NCBI GenBank assembly: GCA_036396655.1
Contig: DASWKK010000098.1
Location: forward strand, 14,592 to 78,591
Direction: 5' to 3'
From: Acidimicrobiia bacterium
GTDB lineage: Bacteria; Actinomycetota; Acidimicrobiia; Spongiisociales; ZC4RG35
DNA: 64,000 bases
This document shows, piece after piece, positions 4,943-44,328 of this stretch (its first letter is position 1; the number at the start of each line of letters is the position of its first letter). Under the pieces are notes generated by a model, which had not been told where the DNA came from, did no database searches, and was given only the letters and a program-made list of their open reading frames with translations. A program made the position numbers and the translations under genes.

Positions 4943-6039
4943 GACTGGGGCTCCCGAATCACGACCAGGCTGTCGGCCGCCGACTCCGGAGCCCACACCT
5001 CCCCCGACCTGCCCAGCATCTGGCGCACCTCCCCCGGGTCGTGAGGGAGCGGAAACGCGTCGAATGTCTCGGTTGTGGGATCGAAGCGAACGATCGAGTT
5101 CGACCCGAAGTCGCTGACCCACACCAGGTCCTGGTCGTCGACGTACACGGCATAAGCCTGGGGGCCGTCGCCGGGCAGATGCCAGGTGGCCCAGGTGCCG
5201 GTGTCGGGCGTGTACCTGCTCAAGTTGCCGGTGTTCCACTCACTGACCCAGATCTGACCAAGGGAATCTGACCAGACGCGTCGTGCTCCTTGATCTGGGC
5301 TGGGTGGCTCGAGCACCGTGGTGGTCCCGTCCTCGGTAATGGCTCCCACGAACGAGCCGGCGAGTGAAGCGTAATAGACCGCTCCCTCAGGGGTGGCGGT
5401 GATCCCGTATGGCCCGCGGCCTTCGGGAGCATCGAACACCTCGATGTCGCCGGTGGCGTGATCGAGTCTTCCGTAGATCCCGCGCTGACCCGTGAACCAA
5501 AGGTCGCCGGCGTCGTCAAAGGTGGCGGTGTTGAGATTGGCATCGGGGCGGTCGTCGGGAAGCGGGTAGACCGTCACCGCCTCGGTGATCGGGTCGACGC
5601 TGACGATCGAGTTCAGCCCGCTGTCAGTGATCCAGAGAACACCGGTGGGGTCGACGATCACCCCGTGAGGTCGCGAGCCAGAACCGAGGTCGGTGTGCCT
5701 GGTCTCGCCGGTGGCCGGGTCGAGCCTGCCGAGCGCAGCGGCGCCTTGGGCCGTGTACCAGACCTCGCCATTGTGGCCGGGCGCCACATCGTGAGGCCTG
5801 GATCCGGATGGGACCGGGAAGGAAACGAGCTCGAGGTCCGCGGGGTCGGGCACCGGCGGCTGCACAGTGGTGGCTGTCGTGTCGGCCGGAGGGGCTGGCG
5901 CGGTAGTGGTGGGCTCCCGATCGGTGGAAATGGTGGTGGTATCAGGCGGTGATGTCGGCGTGGTATCGACCCGGTCATCGCTGGCAACGGTGCAGGCTGC
6001 GGCCGATACGACAACTAGCACCAGAAGCGAACGGGGCAT
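4939..6039 (-). CDS. Vgb (streptogramin lyase)-like beta-propeller lipoprotein
   Basis: Lipobox-like LLVLVVVSAAAC, a Thr/Pro-rich linker, and repeated blades RPHDVAPGHNGEVWYT / RPHGVIVDPTGVLWIT / GPYGITATPEGAVYYA. Confidence 0.75.
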   Translation of the reverse strand: MPRSLLVLVVVSAAACTVASDDRVDTTPTSPPDTTTISTDREPTTTAPAPPADTTATTVQPPVPDPADLELVSFPVPSGSRPHDVAPGHNGEVWYTAQGAAALGRLDPATGETRHTDLGSGSRPHGVIVDPTGVLWITDSGLNSIVSVDPITEAVTVYPLPDDRPDANLNTATFDDAGDLWFTGQRGIYGRLDHATGDIEVFDAPEGRGPYGITATPEGAVYYASLAGSFVGAITEDGTTTVLEPPSPDQGARRVWSDSLGQIWVSEWNTGNLSRYTPDTGTWATWHLPGDGPQAYAVYVDDQDLVWVSDFGSNSIVRFDPTTETFDAFPLPHDPGEVRQMLGRSGEVWAPESAADSLVVIREPQS

Positions 6040-6121
6040 CGGGGCAGACTATGCCTGTCGCTGCACTAGTGGCTGCCGGAGAGACGCCACAAGCATTTGC
6101 GCGAGGGGCCACTCGCCTCGG

Positions 6122-12072: not shown

Positions 12073-12324
12073 GTGGAGCATCACGCAGATTTTGCTATCA
12101 CGGTCAGCCGGAAGCTGGACGTCGAGACCAGCGCCGACCCCGGAGATGGCAAACCGGCGATCGCCGGTCGGGTGATCGCTCTCGGTTGGTGGGTCGACTC
12201 CGGGACAGCGCACGATCCCGAGCATGTCGCTTCGGGCACCCTCTATCTGGTGGCCGACCAACGTCGCACGCGCCCCTATTGGGTCAAGCAGTCCGATCTC
12301 ACCGCGATCCGGTTGGTCGAATAG
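12073..12324 (+). CDS. hypothetical small protein (83 aa)
   Basis: GTG-initiated ORF with reasonable GC3 in an otherwise empty gap. Overlaps the convergent neighbour by 26 nt. No family recognised. Confidence 0.35.
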   Translation: MEHHADFAITVSRKLDVETSADPGDGKPAIAGRVIALGWWVDSGTAHDPEHVASGTLYLVADQRRTRPYWVKQSDLTAIRLVE

Positions 12325-13663
12325 GCGCCTCGGGCCGGCTCTGAGGCCCTATCCGGCTGATCTCGTAATGGAGAACGAGGAAAACCGATCCGGCCAGGGT
12401 GAACCGATGCTCGGTCTTCAGCTCCCCGTCGATCACGAATACGTCGATCTCCTCGCCAAATGCCCTCAGTTGAAGAGTGGTCAACTCGCCAGTGGGCTCG
12501 ATGAACGACAGGTAGTGACCAGCGTGTGGGGCATCGGCGTGCGATCGGAGCCGAAGACCGTCGCCGAGATGATTGGATGGCAGCAGGGTCGCGGTGAAGT
12601 TGGCGGTCGGTAGGGGGAAACCCACGGCCACATAGGGAACGCCTTCGACCTCCTGGACGGTGTAGATGCCGACGTACAGCGGCTCGCCATCCTGGTATGC
12701 ACGAATCCAAGCGCGGAAGTCGGCTCGCTCATCGCCGTCGACATCAATGGTGTCGATCCACGAGACGACCCCTCTCTGCACCTCTTCGATCTCGAAGGGC
12801 GCATTGGCCTGACCTAGCGGTCGCGCCACCGTGCGGCGGTAGACCAGGTAGGGAAGACGCATCCAGGGCCGCCACTGCGGGATGATCGAAAGGGTGAACC
12901 TGCTGGTGTGCTCGTAGAACTCCCTCACCAGGGGATGGGTCATGTCAGGCTCAAAGCTCGGTCCGCGGAGAAGGTCGAGGCTCTCGATAATCCCGATGCC
13001 CTCCGGGTTGCGGGTGAACGTGGCCCCGACGGTCAGGGCATAGCGCTCCAGATAATCGACGCCCACGTAGCCGGTCGCCTCAGCAAAAGGGACCACATAT
13101 CGTGCTTCCGTCTGGGTCATCCGCTCGCCCATGATCCGGACCTGATCACGGCCTCGCCACCACCATCCGGCGAGAGAGCGGTAAATCAGGACGGTGAGAG
13201 CGACCGGCAAACCCCAACCAAAATCCCATGCCGTGAGATCGAATCCGACGCCGACAACGACGCCGACCCCGGCGCCGAGCAGCAGCTTGACCGGCCGGAA
13301 ACCAATCGCCCCCGCCAACGCACCGATCGAGGTCGCCGGAACCCAAGCCGGCCAGTCGGGGAGGACGAGTTCCAGCAACCATCCGACAATGGCGGCCAGG
13401 GCCACCGAGGCGGCGATTCGGATCCCGATCGGCTGTGGCCTCCCGGGAATACGCCGCGCATCCGCCCAAGCCGACACCAACCCGAGCGCTACAGCCCCGA
13501 CGATCATTGCCGGGAGTGGTCCCCGACTCGAGGCCGAACTGATGGCAGCTCCCCCTCCCGCTCCGATCAGGCCGCCGGCGATTCCTGCGGCCGCTACCTG
13601 ACCGGGGGTCCGAGTCGACGCGGGTTGCGGGAGGCTCTTCGATCCAATGCCATTCTCAGCCAA
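12299..13663 (-). CDS. membrane protein with a large C-terminal soluble domain (possibly DUF4166-like)
   Basis: The N-terminal half is Gly/Ala-rich TM helices and the C-terminal half is beta-rich. Its start overlaps the stop of the upstream gene by 8 nt. Confidence 0.7.
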   Translation of the reverse strand: MAENGIGSKSLPQPASTRTPGQVAAAGIAGGLIGAGGGAAISSASSRGPLPAMIVGAVALGLVSAWADARRIPGRPQPIGIRIAASVALAAIVGWLLELVLPDWPAWVPATSIGALAGAIGFRPVKLLLGAGVGVVVGVGFDLTAWDFGWGLPVALTVLIYRSLAGWWWRGRDQVRIMGERMTQTEARYVVPFAEATGYVGVDYLERYALTVGATFTRNPEGIGIIESLDLLRGPSFEPDMTHPLVREFYEHTSRFTLSIIPQWRPWMRLPYLVYRRTVARPLGQANAPFEIEEVQRGVVSWIDTIDVDGDERADFRAWIRAYQDGEPLYVGIYTVQEVEGVPYVAVGFPLPTANFTATLLPSNHLGDGLRLRSHADAPHAGHYLSFIEPTGELTTLQLRAFGEEIDVFVIDGELKTEHRFTLAGSVFLVLHYEISRIGPQSRPEAPIRPTGSR

Positions 13664-14039
13664 GCCGGGAGAAGAAGTCCGTTATGGCCTGAGTGTCGTC
13701 GGAGAACGCCCAGCGCTCGGTGACCTTCCCGTCTCTGACGTGGGCGATCTCGGCGGTCCGATAGGTGAAGGATGAGTCGCCGACCGTGACCGTCGCGGTG
13801 ACCAGCCCCACAAGGTGCTCGTCATTGGCGACGACATCGTGCAACTCCACCTCGAAGGCCACGTCCTCCATGGCCTGCATCGACTGAAGGAGCGCCTCCT
13901 TGCCCCGGATTGGCTCGGCGACGCCGATCTGCCACCAAACCACATCGTCGGCTATGGATTCGGCAAAGGCAGTGGTATCTCCTTGGCTGAATCTCTCCAT
14001 GACCTGTCGATACAAGGCAGCATTGGGATGCTCGCTCAT
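13656..14039 (-). CDS. SnoaL/NTF2-like fold protein
   Basis: 127 aa with a typical SnoaL-like N-terminus (NAALYRQVMERFSQGD). GAGGAGG SD upstream. Confidence 0.75.
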   Translation of the reverse strand: MSEHPNAALYRQVMERFSQGDTTAFAESIADDVVWWQIGVAEPIRGKEALLQSMQAMEDVAFEVELHDVVANDEHLVGLVTATVTVGDSSFTYRTAEIAHVRDGKVTERWAFSDDTQAITDFFSRLG

Positions 14040-14241
14040 GATTCCTCCTCTGAAATGGAGCGATCCTCAGGAACCTACCAGTGGTCTGTCGCTGAAATAG
14101 GGCGAGGGTGTCTCCGAGTCATCGGCGTGATCTGGCAAGGAGAAAAGCGCAGTCGCAGTCGGGGCCCGCGTCGAGCATTTTGGACGCAGCCAGGCGCGTC
14201 GAGGGCCGGAGAGACACCGCCAGTATTTCTGCGACGGGCCA

Positions 14242-14422
14242 CTAGTGCCCGGTCCGGCAGATCATGCTCGTATTTCACCGGCCCTTGTCCCCCCTGGCGG
14301 CATCCTCGTCCTTGACGAACGGCCCAGTGCGCCTGCGTCCTGCGTCTTTGCCAGGAACGACAATTGCTCGCCGAAATAACAAGCGAATCCACCGGACCGG
14401 ACACTAGGCGAGAATCGCACCA
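14242..14422. repeat. copy A of a two-copy hairpin-forming intergenic element (structured RNA or MITE-like)
   Basis: The reverse complement of 14242-14407 aligns without gaps to 39943-40108. Terminal inverted repeats are CTAGTGCCCGGTCCGG / CCGGACCGGACACTAG. Confidence 0.8.
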
Positions 14423-14475: not shown

Positions 14476-14784
14476 GTGGAGGAGCGCCCCAGCCACGGAG
14501 AACCATCGTGGTTCGTAGCGGGAAAACGGATGTTCGTCACGTACGCCGAGCACCATCATGACGATCGGGTCGCAATTTGGGGTGCCGCTCCCGAGGGGAT
14601 GCAACCGACACTGGTCGAATCCGATCCCGAGCATTACTTCGTCCCCCCGTATGTTGGAGGACGCGGGTGGGTCGGGTACTACCTCGACGGGGCGGTCGAC
14701 TGGGACGAGGTGAACGAGCTGGTCCTCGATGCGTTTCTGACAGTGGCACCGGCTCGGCTCGCGGCTCTCGTCAAAAGTGACTGA
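14476..14784 (+). CDS. MmcQ/YjbR-family protein
   Basis: EPSWFVAGKRMF...GRGWVGYYLDG is typical of YjbR-like proteins. The GTG start is uncertain (see findings). Confidence 0.75.
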   Translation: MEERPSHGEPSWFVAGKRMFVTYAEHHHDDRVAIWGAAPEGMQPTLVESDPEHYFVPPYVGGRGWVGYYLDGAVDWDEVNELVLDAFLTVAPARLAALVKSD

Positions 14785-15260: not shown

Positions 15261-15443
15261 TCAGGCAGCCAGCGACGCCAGCTCCTGGGCTGTCTCACGA
15301 TCGAGCTCGAACTCGTCGATCAGGCACTCCACCACCTCATCGATCTCAAGACCGTTCTTCTCCAGATAGATCACGGCCCGACTGGCGAAATCGAAGTCCG
15401 CCGGCTCGGGGTTGGTCATATGCTCAAGGGAGTTGACAGTCAT
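15261..15443 (-). CDS. small acidic hypothetical protein (60 aa)
   Basis: ATG 15443 is preceded by AGGAGG with a 6-nt spacer. The longer 166-aa ORF upstream of it is low-complexity. Confidence 0.55.
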   Translation of the reverse strand: MTVNSLEHMTNPEPADFDFASRAVIYLEKNGLEIDEVVECLIDEFELDRETAQELASLAA

Positions 15444-15533
15444 ACGGGACCTCCTTTGCATCTCACCCTTACCCATCACCGGGTGAAGGAAAACGGCCGC
15501 GCTCCGTGGCAGCATCCTCGGTAGGTTCGACGG

Positions 15534-15865
15534 ATGGGCCCATCTGGACCTGGCTGGTTGGTAACCAAGCTCGACGACGGAAACGGTGCCTTGGACGGGG
15601 TTCTCCAAGGCACGACCCTCACTCTCGCGTACGACGGCGAGCGGATAGCCGGATCTGCCGGGTGCAACAACTACACGGGGGCCGGCCACGATCGAGGACG
15701 AGGTCCGGATCGGACCGCTCGTTATGACCTCGATGATGTGCGCCGAGCCGGAAGGGATCATGGAGCAGGAGAAGAGATTTCTCGATCTTCTCCAGCAAGC
15801 GGACTCGGTTCACTCCGATGGCGAACTGCTCCAGCTGGGGCGCGGGGGGCGAGTGTTGGCAGTGA
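15534..15865 (+). pseudogene. META-domain (HslJ-like) gene interrupted by a frameshift
   Basis: WLVTKLDDG...RIAGSAGCNNYTG is in one frame. IGPLVMTSMMCAEPEGIMEQEKRFLDLL is in the next frame. The switch lies at the G5 run 15677-15681. Confidence 0.55.
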
Positions 15866-37125: not shown

Positions 37126-39906
37126 TCAGTCACCCGCCAGAAGATCGAGCAACTGTTCGCCGTAGGCGTCGAGCTTGGCGGGGCCGATCCCGGGGACGCC
37201 GAGCAGAGCGGCCTCGCTCGAGGGTCGGATCGAGGCGATCGCCTCCAGCGTCCTGTCGTTGAACACGACATAGGCGGGAACTCCTTGTGACCGCGCTTGC
37301 TCCAGACGCCACTTCTTCAGTCGCTCTACGACCTCGGGGTCAGACGGATCGCCTTCACCTGGGGCGAGACGCCCTGAGTCGTTCGCCCGGCGCACCTTCT
37401 CGCCCCAAGGCACCGCCACTGTGGCGCCGGTCTCGACCACCTTGACGAGGACACCTGTCACCAGGATCTCGTCAACCGTGCCCCGATAACCGCCGCTGAG
37501 CACGATCTCCTCGCCGATGGATACAGACACGGCGTCCGACGGCGAGCGCGCTGCCCGACGATCACTCCGAGCCGGGCGCGGTTCGGCCAGCATTGGGGCG
37601 CTTCCATCGATCTCGTTGAGAAACCGGGACGGTCGCTCTGCGTCAGCCAGGATCGTCACCGATCGCCGCCCCCGGGTGATGGCAACGTGGAACACCCTGC
37701 GTTCCTCTTCGGTGTCGTCGGACAGCTCGTGTGGCATGGACCCCCGGTCGGCCCCAAACACCAAGACATGGTTCCACTCGAGGCCCTTGACCCGATGCAC
37801 TGTCGACAACGTCACGCCGTCGGGCGAACCGGGAGCACGCAGCCGCTCCCGAAGCCACGTCTCGAACTCCGATGGTGCCGGGCCGAGTGCCGCCACCCTG
37901 AGCAGTGCAGTCAGGTCGTCACCCTGAGCGGCGCGATCGGCCCGGGTACGTCCGGCGTCGAGTGCCGCCGCGGCGCGATCGAGCCCGATATGAGCAGCCA
38001 GCACTTCGACGAGATGAGCCGTGGAGTTGGTCGCCCTGGAGGCGATGAGTATGTCCTCGCAGAACTTGTTCCATCGGTCACTGCGACGACCCTCGAGGTC
38101 CCGGCCCAAGACGACCAGGTCATCCAATGAGAATGGGCCGCGACGACGTCCGATCATCTCCCCGAACAGCCTGGTGATCCCCCGACCAGGACGTCGGATT
38201 GCTTCGAAGAGGTCGTTGCGACTCATCGCTCCCGGTTCGACAGCAATCCGGATCCACGAGAGCGCCGCCCGAAGCAGGGTCCGTTCCAGGACGGCCATGG
38301 ACAGTGGGCTGTGGAATCTGATGTCGTGCATGGAAAGGGCGACGTGAGCGGGGAGAAGACCGGAGTTCACCCGGGACAGGACGGCGATGTCTGCCGGCTC
38401 GACTCCCGCTTCGACCAGGACCCCGATGCGCTCGACCGCAACCACGCCCAGCTCGACACCGGGGGCCAGAACCACTTGCAGACCATCTGTCTCCGAGTCG
38501 GCCCGGATCGTCTTGGCAACTCGTCGTTGGTTGTAGCCGAGCAGATTGGCGGTGGACTCGACGACGTCCACGGGGCACCGGTAGTTGACCTCGAGAGCGT
38601 GGACTTCTGCCCCCGGGAACAGTTCCTCGAACTCGATGAGAAAGGCCGGGTCGGCGCCGGCATAACCGTAGATCACCTGGTCGTCGTCACCGACCCCGAA
38701 CACGTTCATGCCGGGGGCGCTCACCAGCCGGATGAGCAACAGGTATGCCGGTGTCAAGTCCTGAAACTCATCAACCAACAGGTGCCGGCATTGAGATTGC
38801 CAGTGAGCTCGTAGGTCGGGATACCGGCACAGGGCTTCGATTGCCCCGTAAATCTGCTCGGCGTGATCCGCTTCGCCCTGATGCTCCAACACAGCCCGAT
38901 AGCGGCTGAAGGTTTCCACGAAGCGCGGAACGTCATCACGCTCGGCCTCGACCTCTTCGGGATCGCGCAGCCCGATGCGCACTTCGTCGAGCGCCTCCAG
39001 ATAGGGCCCGATCACATCGGTGTTGGCGCGAGGAGGGGCGGTTGCGATGGGCTCGAGCCTCCTTCGCTGCTCCCGGTCGTCGATCAACCTGAGGTGAGGC
39101 TTGACCATTCTCAGAATCTCCCAACCAAGCGAATGGATGGTCCGCACACTCAGGCCACTGTCAGTGGGAAGTCGTTCGACCATCTCGCGCGCCGCCCGTC
39201 GGTTGTAGGCAAGGGCGGTGATCAACTCTGGCTCGACCCCGCGATCCTCGATCAGGTGACGGGCCCGGGCGGTCAAGACACGGGTCTTGCCCGAACCGGC
39301 CGGGGCGATGACCCGGGCGGGGCCCACCAGATGTGACACGGCTTCGAGCTGGTCAGGGGCCAGATCGAAGGAGGGTGCCTTGAAACTCGGGATCGGGTCG
39401 GCGCGGCCCAGGTCGACTGTCTCGTGATGAATCACCATTCCCTCGATGTCGAGTGGCTGTCGAGGCCCACCATCGATCCACGCCGGCGTGCCCTCCGTTG
39501 TGACCACATCTGCCGGGGCACCGACGGTGACCGAGAGACGCGAGGCCGCCTTGTGTCCCCACCACCAGATCGGTGGTTGTGCTCTGGCGTCATAAGAGTT
39601 GTGCCAGACCGCCTTGATCAGCCGCTCACGGAGAAAGGTGAACCGCCCTCCCAATTCGTGAGGTGCAGCTTCTGTCGTCCCGGGCGTCGTCAGCTCCCCC
39701 GGTTCCACATCCAGCTCGTAAACGGTCGGGGTCCTGCGCACATACCGTCGCTGCAGGTCGGCGACTACCACGGCCAGACGCAATGGGTCGGACAGGAGCG
39801 CCACGTCGATCCGGATCCGATCAGCCCCCGCCCAAGCTGTCGGCGTGGGCGCTCCGGGACCCACCACCACGGAGCGACCGAGTTCGGAAGGGCCCGGTGC
39901 AGTCAC
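37126..39906 (-). CDS. UvrD/Rep/PcrA-type SF1 DNA helicase with N-terminal extension and C-terminal HRDC domain
   Basis: Walker A APAGSGKTRVLT, motif II LLVDEFQDLT, VHRVKGLEWNHV and FHVAITRGRRS. C-terminal VVFNDRTLEAIA...GIGPAKLDAYG. About 190 residues precede the helicase core. Confidence 0.9.
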   Translation of the reverse strand: MTAPGPSELGRSVVVGPGAPTPTAWAGADRIRIDVALLSDPLRLAVVVADLQRRYVRRTPTVYELDVEPGELTTPGTTEAAPHELGGRFTFLRERLIKAVWHNSYDARAQPPIWWWGHKAASRLSVTVGAPADVVTTEGTPAWIDGGPRQPLDIEGMVIHHETVDLGRADPIPSFKAPSFDLAPDQLEAVSHLVGPARVIAPAGSGKTRVLTARARHLIEDRGVEPELITALAYNRRAAREMVERLPTDSGLSVRTIHSLGWEILRMVKPHLRLIDDREQRRRLEPIATAPPRANTDVIGPYLEALDEVRIGLRDPEEVEAERDDVPRFVETFSRYRAVLEHQGEADHAEQIYGAIEALCRYPDLRAHWQSQCRHLLVDEFQDLTPAYLLLIRLVSAPGMNVFGVGDDDQVIYGYAGADPAFLIEFEELFPGAEVHALEVNYRCPVDVVESTANLLGYNQRRVAKTIRADSETDGLQVVLAPGVELGVVAVERIGVLVEAGVEPADIAVLSRVNSGLLPAHVALSMHDIRFHSPLSMAVLERTLLRAALSWIRIAVEPGAMSRNDLFEAIRRPGRGITRLFGEMIGRRRGPFSLDDLVVLGRDLEGRRSDRWNKFCEDILIASRATNSTAHLVEVLAAHIGLDRAAAALDAGRTRADRAAQGDDLTALLRVAALGPAPSEFETWLRERLRAPGSPDGVTLSTVHRVKGLEWNHVLVFGADRGSMPHELSDDTEEERRVFHVAITRGRRSVTILADAERPSRFLNEIDGSAPMLAEPRPARSDRRAARSPSDAVSVSIGEEIVLSGGYRGTVDEILVTGVLVKVVETGATVAVPWGEKVRRANDSGRLAPGEGDPSDPEVVERLKKWRLEQARSQGVPAYVVFNDRTLEAIASIRPSSEAALLGVPGIGPAKLDAYGEQLLDLLAGD

Positions 39907-39926: not shown

Positions 39927-40108
39927 TGGTGACGGTTTCGATCTAGTGTCCTGTCCGGTGGATTCGCTTGCTATTTCGGCGAGCAGTTGTTGTTCCTGGC
40001 AAGGACGCAGGACGCAGGCGCACTGTTCCGTTCGTCAAGGACGAGGACGCTGCCAGGAGGGACAAGGGCCGTTGAAATACGAGCACGATCTGCCCGACAG
40101 GGCACCAG
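39927..40108. repeat. copy B of the two-copy hairpin-forming element
   Basis: See copy A. Ends about 20-35 nt from the helicase start codon (GTG 39906, minus strand). Confidence 0.8.
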
Positions 40109-40182
40109 CGCCGCACCGGGTTGCGACCGAGGGCCGGGATCAGGTCCGGACCGTGATGATCACCGCCCCGATCGAATAGGGC

Positions 40183-40255
40183 CATATCGCGCCCAAGGCG
40201 GCGCGATATGACGACATGGAGCCGGAGGTTGGGCTGGGAGGACCGGCTCCATGTC
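40183..40255 (-). terminator. two adjacent perfect hairpins (11-bp and 13-bp stems), possible factor-independent terminators or an attenuator
   Basis: CATATCGCGCC-N6-GGCGCGATATG at 40183-40210. GACATGGAGCCGG-N17-CCGGCTCCATGTC at 40213-40255. No U-tract follows. Confidence 0.3.
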
Positions 40256-40470: not shown

Positions 40471-43400
40471 TCACGACGCCTGTTTTCTCTGTCCTCTGCT
40501 GCTCACCATGTGACCCTCCTCCCGCAGCGCCGCCAGATCTCGCCGCACCGTGGAGTCGCTCACCTCCAGGGCGGCAGCCACCTGCTCGATTGCGGGCACG
40601 GCACCCCGATCGTCGGCCTCCGCCAACAGCCGAAGCAACCGATGACGTCTCCGGTCGATCGGCGAGACGAATCTGGCATCCTCGGGATGGTCGATCGTCC
40701 ACACCACCCGACGGGTTTCGTCATCTCCGAGGGGGCGCCCGGTGGGAGCCTCGACCGCCGGTAGCCGAACCTCTACCGTCCGGGGCGCGATCAGAGTCGC
40801 CGCCGCAACGATCTCACGGTGCTCTGGCACCCTCACCATTGCTTCCGCCCGGTGCTCGGGCGACAACCCGGCCAGGGAGACCTCGAGCGAGCGGTGTGCC
40901 TCCGACAATGCCCGACGAGCCTCCTCTTCGTTCCCGGTTGCCCGAGCGGCGGCCGAGTGCCAGTGATAGACCAGATAGGGTCGCTCCACGCCTGGAGTGA
41001 GGTGCTCGACTGCCCGCCGAGTGAGGAGGTAGGCCTCTCCAGCGCGACCAATGGCGAGCAGAGTGGCGCCCCGGATCGCCATCAGCTCGACAGCCAGGTC
41101 GTCGAGCCCGACTTCTGCACACAGCCGATCCGCCCGATCCAGAGTGGCAAAGGCCGCCTCGTACTCTCCCAGAGCCAGGTGGAAACGGGCCAACGAGCGA
41201 AGATGCTGACCCTCGAGGGCCCGATCGCCGCTCCCAGCAAGGGCTTCGAGGCTCTCCTCCAACAACCCTCTCGCCTGGTCGGGTCGACCCCTGCGCATCG
41301 CTACACCGGCCTGAATCTCCATGCACTGGGCTTCACCGACCCGATCACCGATGTCCGCGAAGTGCTTCATCGCCCGCCCCGCATCGGCAAACGCCCGATC
41401 GTCGTCGCCGAGCAGGGTGTGCCTTGCCGAGGCAGCGTTGGCGAGCACCATCGCCTCGCCTCTCAGGTTGCCCAACTCGGCAAAGATCTCAGCGGCACGG
41501 TCGTATCCGGACAGAGAGTCGGCCACCCGGCCCAAGAGATGATGGAGATTGCTCAGGTTGACCAGGTTCACCCCCTCGCCGTGGCGGTATCCGATCCTGC
41601 GACACAGCTCGATGGCTCGCTGGTAGCCGACAACTGCCTGGTCCCGGTCTCCATCCTGACGCAGCGCACGGGCGTGGATCCCTGCCAGCTCCGCTTCGCC
41701 CCTCAGGTCGCCCAACTCGCGTATCAGTGCGAGAGCTTGATCGATTAGGGGCATCGCCTCCGCCGATCGCTGCACTTCGACCAGGGTGCTGCTCAGCTCG
41801 GTGAGGGCCTCGGCCCGCCGCCGCTGGTCCCCTGTCGCGGCCTCCACCGCCGCCTCGAGGTGAGGCACCGCATCCAACGGGCGCCCCGACCACCTGAGAG
41901 ATGTGCCCAACGCGACGAGGGAAGCGGCCAGGGCGGCTTGGTCCCCCCGTTTTCGCTCGACGCGAACTGATCGTCGAGCCGCCTCTTCAGCCCCGGTGAA
42001 GTCACCACTGTGGGCCAGCAGCCATGCGCTTCGCCGTTCGATGTCGCCCATCCGCTCCGGGCTGCTCCCGGTGAGCGGGGCCATCTCCTCGATCACCTCG
42101 CGCTGTTCCGAGCGCCGTCCTAGGACGCTCAGCACCGCTTCGAGGTGCGCCAACACCTGAAACTGGTCTTCCGGTGGCCAGGCCGCCTTGGCTGCCGCCA
42201 GCCGGGCGGCCTGCAGGTGGGTGCGGGCCGTGGCGTAAGCATTGAGCTCCTCGGCGCGGAGACCTGCTTTCTGCAGATAGGAAGCGGCGCGCTCGTGGAC
42301 CCCGCCCTCACGGAAGTGATGGCCGATCGCCTCGACGTCGTCGGGTGTGTTCTCGGCCAGTGTCTCGGCCAGTCGGCGGTGGAGTTGCCTTCTTCGCCCC
42401 CGTCCGATCCCCTCGTAGACCACCTGGCGCACCTGGTCGTGGGCCATGCGATAGCGGCCGTCGCCCTCGTCCCGAATGAGACCACGATGCAACAGCTCAT
42501 CGACTGCGTCGACCACCGAGCGTCTGTGCAGGTCAGAGCCAATGGCCAGCAGGTCGATGTCAACCGGGTCTCCGCACACCGCCGCCACCTCGTAAACGGC
42601 TGATACGTTGTCGGCGAGCAGCGACATCCGCGAGTCGATGACCGACCGCACTCGGGGTGCCACCGGAATCGCCTGGACAGCCAATTGGTGTTCGAGCACT
42701 TCTGCGAGGTCTTCACCCGTCTCGAACAGTCCTTGGTCCCGGAGGGCTAGGAGGGTCTCGAGAGCGAAGAGAGCGTTACCCCCGGTTCGGCGGTGGAGCA
42801 ATGAGGCAGCGGCCGGCTCCAGATGGCTCATCCCCAGGAACCGCTTGACCATGTCCCCCAGTTCGAAGACAGAGAGCGGGGAGAGCACGACTCGCCCCAG
42901 GCCGGCCGTGCGATCGAGGTCACGGAGGACGTCCCACACCTCAGGGTCGCCGCGAGCCTCTTCGCTTCGGTAGAGCAGTAGCAACAGGATCCGGGAGGCG
43001 GCCAGGCGCGGGCCGAGCTGGGTGAGGACGCCAAGAGTGTCCTCGTCCGCCCAATGCACGTCGTCGACGATCACCAGATGCGGTGCGATACGGCCCAGCG
43101 CTCCCAGGGTGTGCACCAGGGCCTCTTTCATGCGCGAGGATTCCTCCGCTGGTCGCAACGATGCGGAGATCGAAGCGGGGAGGACCTGTCTCCCGAGTGC
43201 CGGCGCCAGCCGCATGGCTTCGCTCAGCCACACCGGCGTCACCTGTTCGGACAGCTGCTCCGCGCGGAGTGGGCTCAGCGATTCGAGGACTTCGACCAGA
43301 GGGGCGAACGGCCGCAACGCACCCGAGGTGCAGCTCCCCCAACTCACTTCGAATCCGCGCCACTGTGCGTCTTCGGCTGCCTCGAGGGCTAGGCGGGTCT

Positions 43401-44328
43401 TCCCCACCCCAGGCTCGCCCTCGACCAGGACCACCCCGCCGGGCCCCGCCAATACACGCTCCAGATGGTCGACCATGCTGCGTCGCTCGTGCTCGCGTCC
43501 AACGAAAGGGGTGGTCGAGCGTCCGGCCACGGGCAATGCCCGATGCTCCCCGGGCAGGGGTCGGATCCCCGCGCCTCGATGTCGCACGATCTTCTCGTAG
43601 AGCTCGGACGTGGCTTCCGAAGGTTCGGCGCCCATCTCCTCGGCCAGGACCGAACGACACCGATCGAACTGCTGCACCGCATCGCTGATTCGCCCGAGCA
43701 GGAAGCACAGCCGCATCACTTCCTGATGGGCTTCCTCGGAGAGAGGGTCGTAATGGGTGAGACGGCGGGCGTAGCCCAGTGCCTCCTCGTAGGCCCCGTT
43801 GGCCTTGGTCACGTCGACGAGTCGACTGAGAGCGACCAGGTATCGCTGGCGATAATGGTCCTGGTCGACCACCACCCAATCGTCGAAGAAACCGGCCAGC
43901 AGGTCGCCTCGATAGAGGTCGACACAAGATCGCAAGGCGGCAGCGTCGAGATCGGCTGCAGCTACTGCCTCGCCCCGCGATGGCTGGGTCGCGTCGAAGA
44001 AACGGTCGAAGTCCTCCACATCGAGCCAATAGGGACTGCTCGTGTCGAAGGCGAGTGTGTCGGCTGTTACTACCAGATGTGACGACTGACCGTCGCTCAC
44101 CGCGTCCTGGATCTGCCACAGCGTGTGGGAGAGGCGACGCCGCGCTTTGCCGTCGGGTAGGTCGGGCCAGAACGAGCCGGCCAACAGGTCCCGCTGCAAC
44201 GGGTGCCCCCTCTGCATCACCAGGTAGGCAAAAAGTGAGCGTCCCGCCCGCGAGACGATTGGGGGCAGGGCGACACCGCCGCGCTCCAGGAAGAACCCGC
44301 CAAAGAGGTGAATGCGAAGCGCCTCCAT
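40471..44328 (-). CDS. SARP/BTAD - NB-ARC-type ATPase - TPR regulator with an extra C-terminal DeoR-like HTH
   Basis: N-terminal winged helix plus BTAD ([10 protein letters not shown]...[10 protein letters not shown]). Walker [27 protein letters not shown] long TPR-like region. C-terminus [21 protein letters not shown]. Confidence 0.9.

Follow-up and report, generated by a model that had tools for sequence, protein, structure and literature searches.

A dispersed, almost fully palindromic 160-bp element at TA/CTAG sites in Acidimicrobiia, very probably a MITE

Two inverted copies in the window and their neighbors

The 64-kb window, meaning the whole stretch of DNA that was analyzed, carries two near-identical copies of a hairpin-forming element, here called MITE1, which lie in opposite orientation beside a YjbR/MmcQ-like gene (copy A) and a gene for a UvrD-like helicase with an HRDC domain (copy B) (Table 1). 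A repeat search of the window aligned them as inverted arms of 166 nt that are 91% complementary without a gap; the pair stands far above chance, the runner-up repeat spanning 54 nt at 74%. The first-pass annotation had described this ungapped pair, together with its terminal inverted repeats, its long hairpin and the two neighboring genes, and its description was borne out by the repeat search, by sequence and folding of both copies and by domain matches. The weaker similarity that it saw continuing for a further 15 nt (14408-14422 versus 39927-39942) is due to chance: similarity ends at the flanking CTAG and, since 29 copies have nothing in common beyond it, the extension lies outside the element.

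On folding, the whole of MITE1 forms one long imperfect hairpin, with terminal inverted repeats (TIRs) and a TA on both sides. The two strands fold unequally, with -103.1 kcal/mol (z -6.8) for the minus strand of copy A versus -76.7 kcal/mol for its plus strand, and -94.0 kcal/mol (z -5.4) for the plus strand of copy B versus -69.0 kcal/mol for its minus strand. Both copies have the same polarity towards the next gene, as had been claimed, and the end of copy B lies 36 nt upstream of the uvrD GTG start; in both, however, it is the opposite strand, antisense to yjbR or uvrD, that folds better. The element is 160 bp long and non-coding, since copies vary by 1-nt and 5-nt indels and there is no real open reading frame (ORF), the overlapping ORFs being spurious and only 44-47 aa in length.

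Table 1. Features of the window (coordinates are window positions)
Feature	Coordinates	Strand	Remarks
Probable MITE2-like remnant (weak assignment), internally deleted, ~48 nt	6066..6116	+	CTAG-TGGCTGCC...GGGGCCAC-TCG; 81% over 37 nt to MITE2 end
SnoaL-like gene	13656..14039	-	PF12680, E 1e-13; adjoins MITE2/MITE1 pair, outside element
MITE2, distantly related hairpin MITE	14078..14245	+	Ends GTGGTCTGTCGC...GCGACGGGCCAC; flanks CCAG...CTAG; end-to-end with copy A
MITE1 copy A	14242..14407	- (well-folding strand)	Flanking CTAG tetranucleotides included; aligned with 28 other copies
MITE1 copy A, element proper under TA-duplication model	14245-14404		TA duplicates 14243-14244 and 14405-14406
YjbR/MmcQ-like gene	14476..14784	+	PF04237, E 9e-10; adjoins copy A, outside element
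UvrD-like helicase gene with HRDC domain	37126..39906	-	Adjoins copy B, outside element
MITE1 copy B	39943..40108	+	Element proper 39946-40105; left flank CTAG, right flank decayed to CCAG

Copy A is separated from the SnoaL-like gene by 152-158 nt, which were considered as a unique spacer until they were found to be a second element, MITE2. The TA at 14243-14244 is common to MITE2 and copy A. MITE2 has four further copies, 90-95% identical, in L150, L068, L060 and L073, and its strands differ in folding as well (-88 versus -60 kcal/mol).

Family, insertion sites and polymorphism

Collections of metagenomes and genomes were scanned with two invariant, exact 18-mers from the apical core of the hairpin and then searched with BLAST and nhmmer, a design that under-samples families without that core, from which the seeds come. 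Rather than the two copies of the first description, there are at least 29 distinct full-length copies of MITE1, nearly all outside the window, with pairwise identities of 87-99% (mean, 94%). They come from several soil metagenomes and from at least seven species-level metagenome-assembled genomes (MAGs) of Acidimicrobiia, those with copies being SMAG_U14446, SMAG_U14487, LejiaB_2_63_13, Lejia_A_62_27, al_S4C811, JTS-RE398 and JTS-RE118. This distribution places the source of the window among the uncultured Acidimicrobiia. Matches to the 18-mers in other phyla (e.g., L091, L107 and L119) were set aside as mostly chance, the similarity being limited to the seed. The related sequences are mostly short metagenome contigs from mixed populations, in which repeats invite assembly chimeras. 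The SnoaL-like neighbor of copy A, for instance, is found on 22 public contigs, all of them metagenomic, and several of these stop inside the element; metagenome contigs L007, L008, L039, L057, L076 and L118 break within it, as expected of a repeat. In L005 the flanks are 100% identical and the element is divergent, for which a chimera is a possible caveat.

By sequence comparison, MITE1 belongs to a superfamily of hairpin MITEs of ~165 nt. A third family, MITE3 (L077, L126, L082, L096 and L043), equals MITE1 in length and has similar termini; the ~60-nt apical core of the two is ~90% identical, whereas the mid-stems are ~40% identical and yet still pair. A combined MITE1 and MITE3 profile in nhmmer matches MITE2 over its full length, in a single orientation, with an E value of 9e-8. 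In addition, L051 carries a 200-nt superfamily variant, and a MITE1 subfamily (L131, L142, L188 and L116) has a 70-nt insertion that folds into three small hairpins, their loops being of GAAA type. All families keep the motif CTGGCAAGGA...GGACGCnGCCAG at the base of the apical domain. Newer elements have inserted at the CTAG beside older ones, as in the MITE2|TA|MITE1 arrangement of the window and in L077, where MITE3 stands beside a mini-MITE3; such end-to-end pairs would arise because a new CTAG is left on either side by every insertion. This MITE family, or small superfamily, of Acidimicrobiia was apparently not described previously.

The ends of MITE1 are sharp. Similarity stops at the identical base in 29 copies, which gives the architecture C-TA-(GTGTCCTGTCCGG...CCGGACAGGGCAC)-TA-G, with GTGTCCTGTCCGG... 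and ...CCGGACAGGGCAC as the terminal inverted repeats. An intact CTAG borders 17/29 copies on the left and 17/29 on the right, and TA borders 19/29 on either side, with 12 of the 29 copies retaining TA on both; the remaining flanks are mostly single transitions, CCAG or CTGG (TA to CA or TG). CTAG is rare in this genome of 64% GC. The window holds 32 such sites versus ~212 expected from base composition, a depletion of ~6.6-fold, and 3 of the 32 flank these elements. The TA of 5'-CTAG-3' is the preferred target of IS630, and IS630-family elements duplicate TA (PMC2170065, citing Tenzen & Ohtsubo 1991).

Three allelic states were found across strains at the site of copy A. The window and L001-L005 have MITE1 plus MITE2; in L078, whose flanks are 94-96% identical, MITE2 is absent and MITE1 has lost internal sequence, with CTAG-TAGG coming directly after it; and L006 has just CTAG-TGACA-CTGG between equivalent flanks. 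At a second polymorphic site, a full copy in L073 corresponds to CTAG-AGGGCA-CTAG, a 6-nt footprint, in L060. From their sequences, these short residual alleles look like excision footprints that keep a few terminal nucleotides between duplicated TAs. Alternatively, they could be ordinary deletions, and their sizes of 1+7 nt and ~3+4 nt do not match the canonical 2-3-nt footprints of Tc1/mariner elements. No pristine empty site was recovered; a look-up of the copy-B site through a 225-aa neighbor gene returned filled sites only, and the contigs of the same population all carry the copy there. In L200, the flank of copy B switches within the last ~20 nt of the element, as a recombinant or an assembly chimera would.

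With genes called by a simple, self-trained codon-usage caller, which is a heuristic, all 27 of the distinct MITE1 sites are intergenic, apparent overlaps being over-extended ORF starts or a shared TAG. At 24 of the 27 sites a stop codon is found no more than 30 nt from one end of the element, and 7 sites have their stop codon supplied by the TAG of the flanking CTAG. The well-folding strand has the sense of the gene that ends beside the element 13 times and is antisense to it 12 times; between tandem genes the two orientations number 10 and 7, and three sites each are convergent and divergent. The scarcity of CTAG, its frequent position over or next to a TAG stop and a presumed tolerance of insertions at such places would together explain why copies collect immediately 3' of genes, whichever way they point. 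The genes beside different copies bear no relation to one another. Following up copy number and contexts, as had been suggested, yielded many copies; the link of the two window copies to DNA-related genes is a coincidence. Copy A would have entered a divergent promoter region, and copy B the site 36 nt upstream of uvrD, by chance.

Stem structure and competing explanations

Covariation, another check that had been proposed, gave a divided result. Within MITE1 there is almost none, which is attributable to the youth of the family. Private substitutions of MITE1 copies include 11 that form G·U and 4 that form A·C (p = 0.12), plus 18 pair-breaking transversions, and there is no evidence within MITE1 of selection on structure after insertion. 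Between MITE1 and MITE3, on the other hand, 24 of 46 stem pairs are changed on both sides with pairing retained, and 96% of stem cells are paired, versus 35-44% with slid partners and 85% in shuffles. Because a transposon is by nature an inverted repeat, this signal is confounded, and taken alone it is expected of transposon ends that match one transposase, or of fold-back copying or template switching. A second feature of the stems is a strand bias. Among transitional arm mismatches, read on the strand defined by homology, G·U outnumbers A·C by 8:1 in MITE1, 9:1 in MITE3 (L077), 7:1 in MITE2 and 4:2 in L051. The three main families pooled give 24 G·U versus 3 A·C (binomial p = 5e-5), and MITE3 plus MITE2 alone, whose orientation was set by MITE1 homology and not by folding, give 16:2 (p = 0.0013). 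The one-sided wobble accounts for the gap of 25-35 kcal/mol in minimum free energy (MFE) between strands. Such a bias is unexpected, because purely double-stranded cut-and-paste movement predicts none, and it suggests that one strand is single-stranded, as DNA or RNA, in some phase of propagation. Since inserted copies appear to decay freely and show no orientation preference towards genes, it is apparently the propagating lineage that is constrained.

[quoted passage not shown] The first-pass annotation had offered an IS630/Tc1-like MITE with TA flanks as one of its readings, and it had named beforehand the signs of a plain MITE, namely many copies in random contexts, TA duplications and the absence of a strand bias relative to genes; this is the pattern found, and at the level of the family the reading is supported by sharp TIR ends, TA/CTAG flanks, dispersed copies and insertion polymorphism. 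Overall, the best explanation, to which we give a probability of roughly three in four, is a non-coding TIR element of ~160 bp that is moved in trans into TA/CTAG sites by a DDE transposase of the IS630/Tc1-mariner type. Under this explanation, a transposase encoded elsewhere would bind the terminal 12-15 bp, which are the part of the arms that families have in common, excise the 160-bp element and reinsert it at a TA, mostly within CTAG, with duplication of the TA. Judged by analogy of the TA/CTAG target, an IS630/Tc1-like mobilizing enzyme is somewhat better than an even bet, and the enzyme family, like cut-and-paste movement, is what we infer, whereas the ends, flanks, copy number, polymorphism and context were observed. 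Searches for a transposase with matching terminal repeats, or for an autonomous partner, returned none in the window and ~1.5 Mb of related loci, whether by fuzzy TIR matching, by a screen for inverted TIR-like pairs 250-3500 bp apart or by a regular expression for the IS630/Tc1 DDE 'NPIE' motif in six-frame translations; a scan of IMG/VR with a degenerate TIR and a blastn search of PLSDB likewise gave no partner.

Two alternatives concern what is duplicated and what the element does. IS5 and IS701 generate 4-bp YTAR duplications, and a transposase of either type could have duplicated the whole CTAG, leaving TGTCC...GGGCA as the element proper; most copies indeed have CTAG on both sides, and the variants TTAG and CTAA fit YTAR. 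However, none of the 29 copies departs from the inner G and C (columns 4 and 163; 0/58), while the outer C and G vary in 8/58 (Fisher p = 0.006) and columns 1-3 and 164-166 are each variable in 3-7 copies, as would be expected if only TA is duplicated and G and C are part of the element. In addition, the flanks TTAG...CTAA in L068 do not form a direct repeat and have the pattern predicted for TA duplication in a TTAA target. The simplest reading of the flanks would therefore be a 2-bp TA duplication inside a preferred CTAG target, and movement by an IS5- or IS701-type enzyme appears highly unlikely. That the element is a small RNA gene or a conserved cis-regulatory RNA linked to genes of DNA repair, as the first-pass annotation had entertained for its position 5' of DNA-related genes, has next to no chance of being correct. 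The appeal of this reading lay in a very stable hairpin with a significant z-score, in the shared polarity of the window copies towards the next gene and in a compensatory pair between them. That pair (G:C versus A:T at alignment columns 10:160) is real, but it reflects one event, confined to the locus of copy A, and the substitutions of copy B that seemed to improve pairing to an 8-bp helix are ordinary family polymorphisms. Against regulation stand the dozens of copies beside unrelated genes, with neighbors at the other ~27 sites unrelated and orientation random, the antisense position of the strong-folding strand relative to yjbR and uvrD and the related strain L006, which is without the element at the copy-A site. 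Rfam 15 gave no match over the element either at gathering thresholds or at E <= 10, in agreement with the earlier impression that no Rfam family was recognizable, and none at E <= 1 fell on the elements across loci carrying related families. A scan of both intergenic regions found no promoter-like (sigma-70-like) site and one terminator-like match in each, at chance level.

The remaining alternative takes the strand bias at face value. It holds that a hairpin mobile element propagates via a folded single strand, as ssDNA or RNA, with the aid of a structure-recognizing enzyme (e.g., of HUH/Y1 type or with an RNA-dependent step), CTAG/TA being the target or cleavage motif. Double-stranded cut-and-paste leaves unexplained the one-sided G·U pairs, the conserved apical core between divergent yet pairing mid-stems and the 70-nt hairpin insertion. 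In favor of a folded strand are the 24:3 wobble count over three families, the MFE difference between strands, the double changes at 24/46 stem pairs with 96% of cells paired, the retention of CTGGCAAGGA...GGACGCnGCCAG in all families, the GAAA-type loops on the inserted hairpins and the three private changes of L142, all of which are G·U on one strand; the 18 pair-breaking transversions within MITE1 again seem to place the constraint on the propagating lineage. On the other side, the TIRs and the TA flanks are symmetric, and the combination of TIRs with a target-site duplication (TSD) is absent from IS200/IS605-type and REP/RAYT elements. The L006 allele resembles excision of a MITE1+MITE2 composite bounded by two 'left' ends, which favors an enzyme that treats both ends alike. 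Arms can also stay complementary in the absence of selection through repair by template switching or on a hairpin template, as outlined in a preprint (bioRxiv 10.1101/2021.04.15.439925). The within-family G·U excess, moreover, is 11 versus 4 (p = 0.12), and no candidate enzyme was found in the searches made. Taken together, propagation through a folded strand is rather unlikely as an account of MITE1. The related proposition, that spread of the superfamily needs a folded single strand whose TA/CTAG-targeting machinery reads the three-way junction CTGGCAAGGA...GGACGCnGCCAG and a G·U-tolerant stem, so that the element is not a passive IS630 derivative, we would call unlikely.

Significance and relation to known elements

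The hosts belong to a poorly studied, uncultured class of actinobacteria, the Acidimicrobiia, whose metagenome assemblies such repeats break and in which they can create chimeric contigs, as L200 may illustrate. Annotation of MITEs also prevents false ncRNA calls, since repeats of this kind can be mistaken for regulatory RNAs. A 55-bp hairpin placed behind many stop codons could, to judge from its sequence and position, influence termination or mRNA decay, and by analogy with Correia and ERIC elements it would be added to the 3' or 5' untranslated regions (UTRs) of neighboring transcripts (PMC3049150). One-sided G·U pairs and an apical core common to stem-divergent families are unusual for a cut-and-paste MITE; if a single-stranded intermediate does exist, the mobilization mechanism would be one not yet described for TA-duplicating elements.

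Bacterial MITEs are characterized by TIRs, direct-repeat flanks, small size, multiple copies, the lack of a transposase and a long stem-loop at the RNA level (PMC3184786). MITE1 shares each of these features, with TIRs, TA flanks, a length of 160 bp (below ~400 bp), no transposase, multiple intergenic copies, mobility polymorphism and a stem-loop. Among its closest likenesses is RUP of Streptococcus pneumoniae (107 bp), another small, non-coding TIR element that is present in many intergenic copies and is predicted to form a stable hairpin. RUP has TIRs like those of IS630-Spn1 and was proposed to be mobilized in trans by the transposase of this IS630-family element (PMC3049150, PMC3184786). 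In contrast to RUP, MITE1 resides in high-GC Acidimicrobiia, has no sequence similarity to it, is longer (160 bp) and is almost fully palindromic; RUP has a known partner IS, whereas none was found for MITE1 in the window, ~1.5 Mb of related loci, IMG/VR or PLSDB. To our knowledge, strand-biased wobble and an apical core shared between families have not been reported for RUP.

IS630 of Shigella sonnei, ISY100 and Tc1/mariner elements insert into TA and duplicate it by cut-and-paste with staggered cuts, which may leave short footprints (PMC2170065). These are autonomous elements of 1.1-1.3 kb with a DDE transposase, unlike the 160-bp, ORF-free MITE1, and the likeness lies in the target site. 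The Correia elements of Neisseria (CREE/NEMIS) are flanked by TA. They are TIR MITEs of 100-157 bp with no cognate transposase known, are transcribed within neighboring mRNAs, where their long hairpins are RNase III substrates, and contain internal functional motifs (PMC3184786, PMC3049150). They are unrelated to MITE1 in sequence and host, and RNA-level processing has been demonstrated for them. ERIC (IRU) elements are imperfect palindromes of ~127 bp, intergenic, transcribed and found in both orientations, with orientation-dependent effects of the RNA hairpin on mRNA stability (PMC3049150); being enterobacterial, they too have no sequence relation to MITE1.

REPINs, mobilized by RAYTs, resemble MITE1 as dispersed, extragenic hairpin repeats (~100 nt) at the 3' ends of genes. 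Their substrate is thought to be a single-strand hairpin, which would fit the strand-biased wobble pairs of MITE1. REPINs, however, lack the combination of TIRs and a TSD, and each of their short REP palindromes is preceded on the 5' side by a conserved GTAG, whereas MITE1 has TA/CTAG on both sides and symmetric, long TIRs. The PATEs derived from IS200/IS605 have neither TIRs nor a duplication, and their subterminal hairpins are distinct at left and right; MITE1 differs from them in forming one hairpin over the whole element, bounded by TIRs and with TA on both sides.

MITE2 and the surroundings of copies A and B

The stretch adjoining copy A of the MITE1 family, which the first-pass annotation had taken for ordinary spacer, is instead a second hairpin MITE, MITE2, a distant relative of MITE1, with further copies at four other loci from public metagenome contigs or MAGs. 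A shorter MITE2-like stretch, inside the intergenic region 5240-6121, is probably a remnant left after internal deletion. On the side of copy B, two hairpins lie between the element and the 3' end of a BTAD/AAA/TPR regulator gene (40471-44328, minus strand), and may be terminators or additional small palindromic repeats. The two ORFs listed near copy A yielded no match at E <= 0.001 in a Pfam search.

Hairpin elements and neighbouring features (L-numbers are metagenomic loci)
Feature	Location	Strand	Remarks
MITE2	window 14078-14245	+	end to end with copy A, sharing one TA
MITE2, further copies	L150:3010-3178; L068:906-1073; L060:2394-2562; L073:10065-10233		
MITE2-like stretch, ~48 nt	window 6066-6116		CTAG-flanked; ends GTGGC...GGGGCCAC resemble MITE2 termini
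MITE1 subfamily	L131:1401-1625; L142:6439-6663; L188:1097-1324; L116:1-390		left-arm insertion, ~70 nt
MITE3	L077:131-298; L126:4827-4994; L082:1024-1188; L096:5194-5358	- (L126)	
Core-less MITE3 mini-derivative, ~60 nt	L077:295-355		directly after full MITE3; CTAG common to both
Two G+C-rich perfect hairpins	window ~40175-40255		CATATCGCGCC...GGCGCGATATG and GGAGCCGG...CCGGCTCC
ORF, 454 aa	window 12299-13663	-	scores well; near copy A
ORF, 166 aa	window 15261-15761	-	scores well; near copy A

Variation within and between families

MITE3 matches MITE1 in length, termini, and apical core but differs from it in stem sequence. Within MITE1, one subfamily is set apart by an insertion that comprises three small perfect hairpins, of which two have GAAA-type loops; in L116 this insertion is present as a tandem duplicate spanning a scaffold gap. 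In L142, one insertion hairpin has three private changes, each of which gives a G·U pair on the strand with the clearly better predicted hairpin. A fragment of group II intron domain 1-4 (1-88; Rfam RF02003) stands at the start of the L131 contig, which comes from MAG al_S4C811, a carrier of MITE1b. At L051, a 200-nt variant element lies 16 nt away from a tRNA gene (12155-12228 and 12244-12450).

Two loci call for caution as possible artefacts. In L200:590-860 (contig ena:ERZ27254865:k141_1739703), uvrD and most of copy B are identical to the window; a different flank, which ends in CTAA and adjoins a Spore_YtfJ-like gene, takes over in the last ~20 nt of the element. Either two MITE copies have recombined here or the contig is chimeric, misassembled at the repeat. 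At the copy A site in L005 (126-286), the flanking sequence shows 100% identity to the window, yet the element carries three substitutions and a 5-nt deletion, which suggests that the repeat was collapsed or made chimeric in assembly or, alternatively, that the hairpin has changed unusually fast.

Scarcity of CTAG

The tetranucleotide CTAG is ~6.6-fold rarer than expected across the whole window (32 observed versus ~212 expected at 64% GC), and the most frequent decayed MITE flanks are CCAG and CTGG. Judged from sequence, this combination of scarcity and flank decay is reminiscent of CTAG loss of the very-short-patch-repair type.
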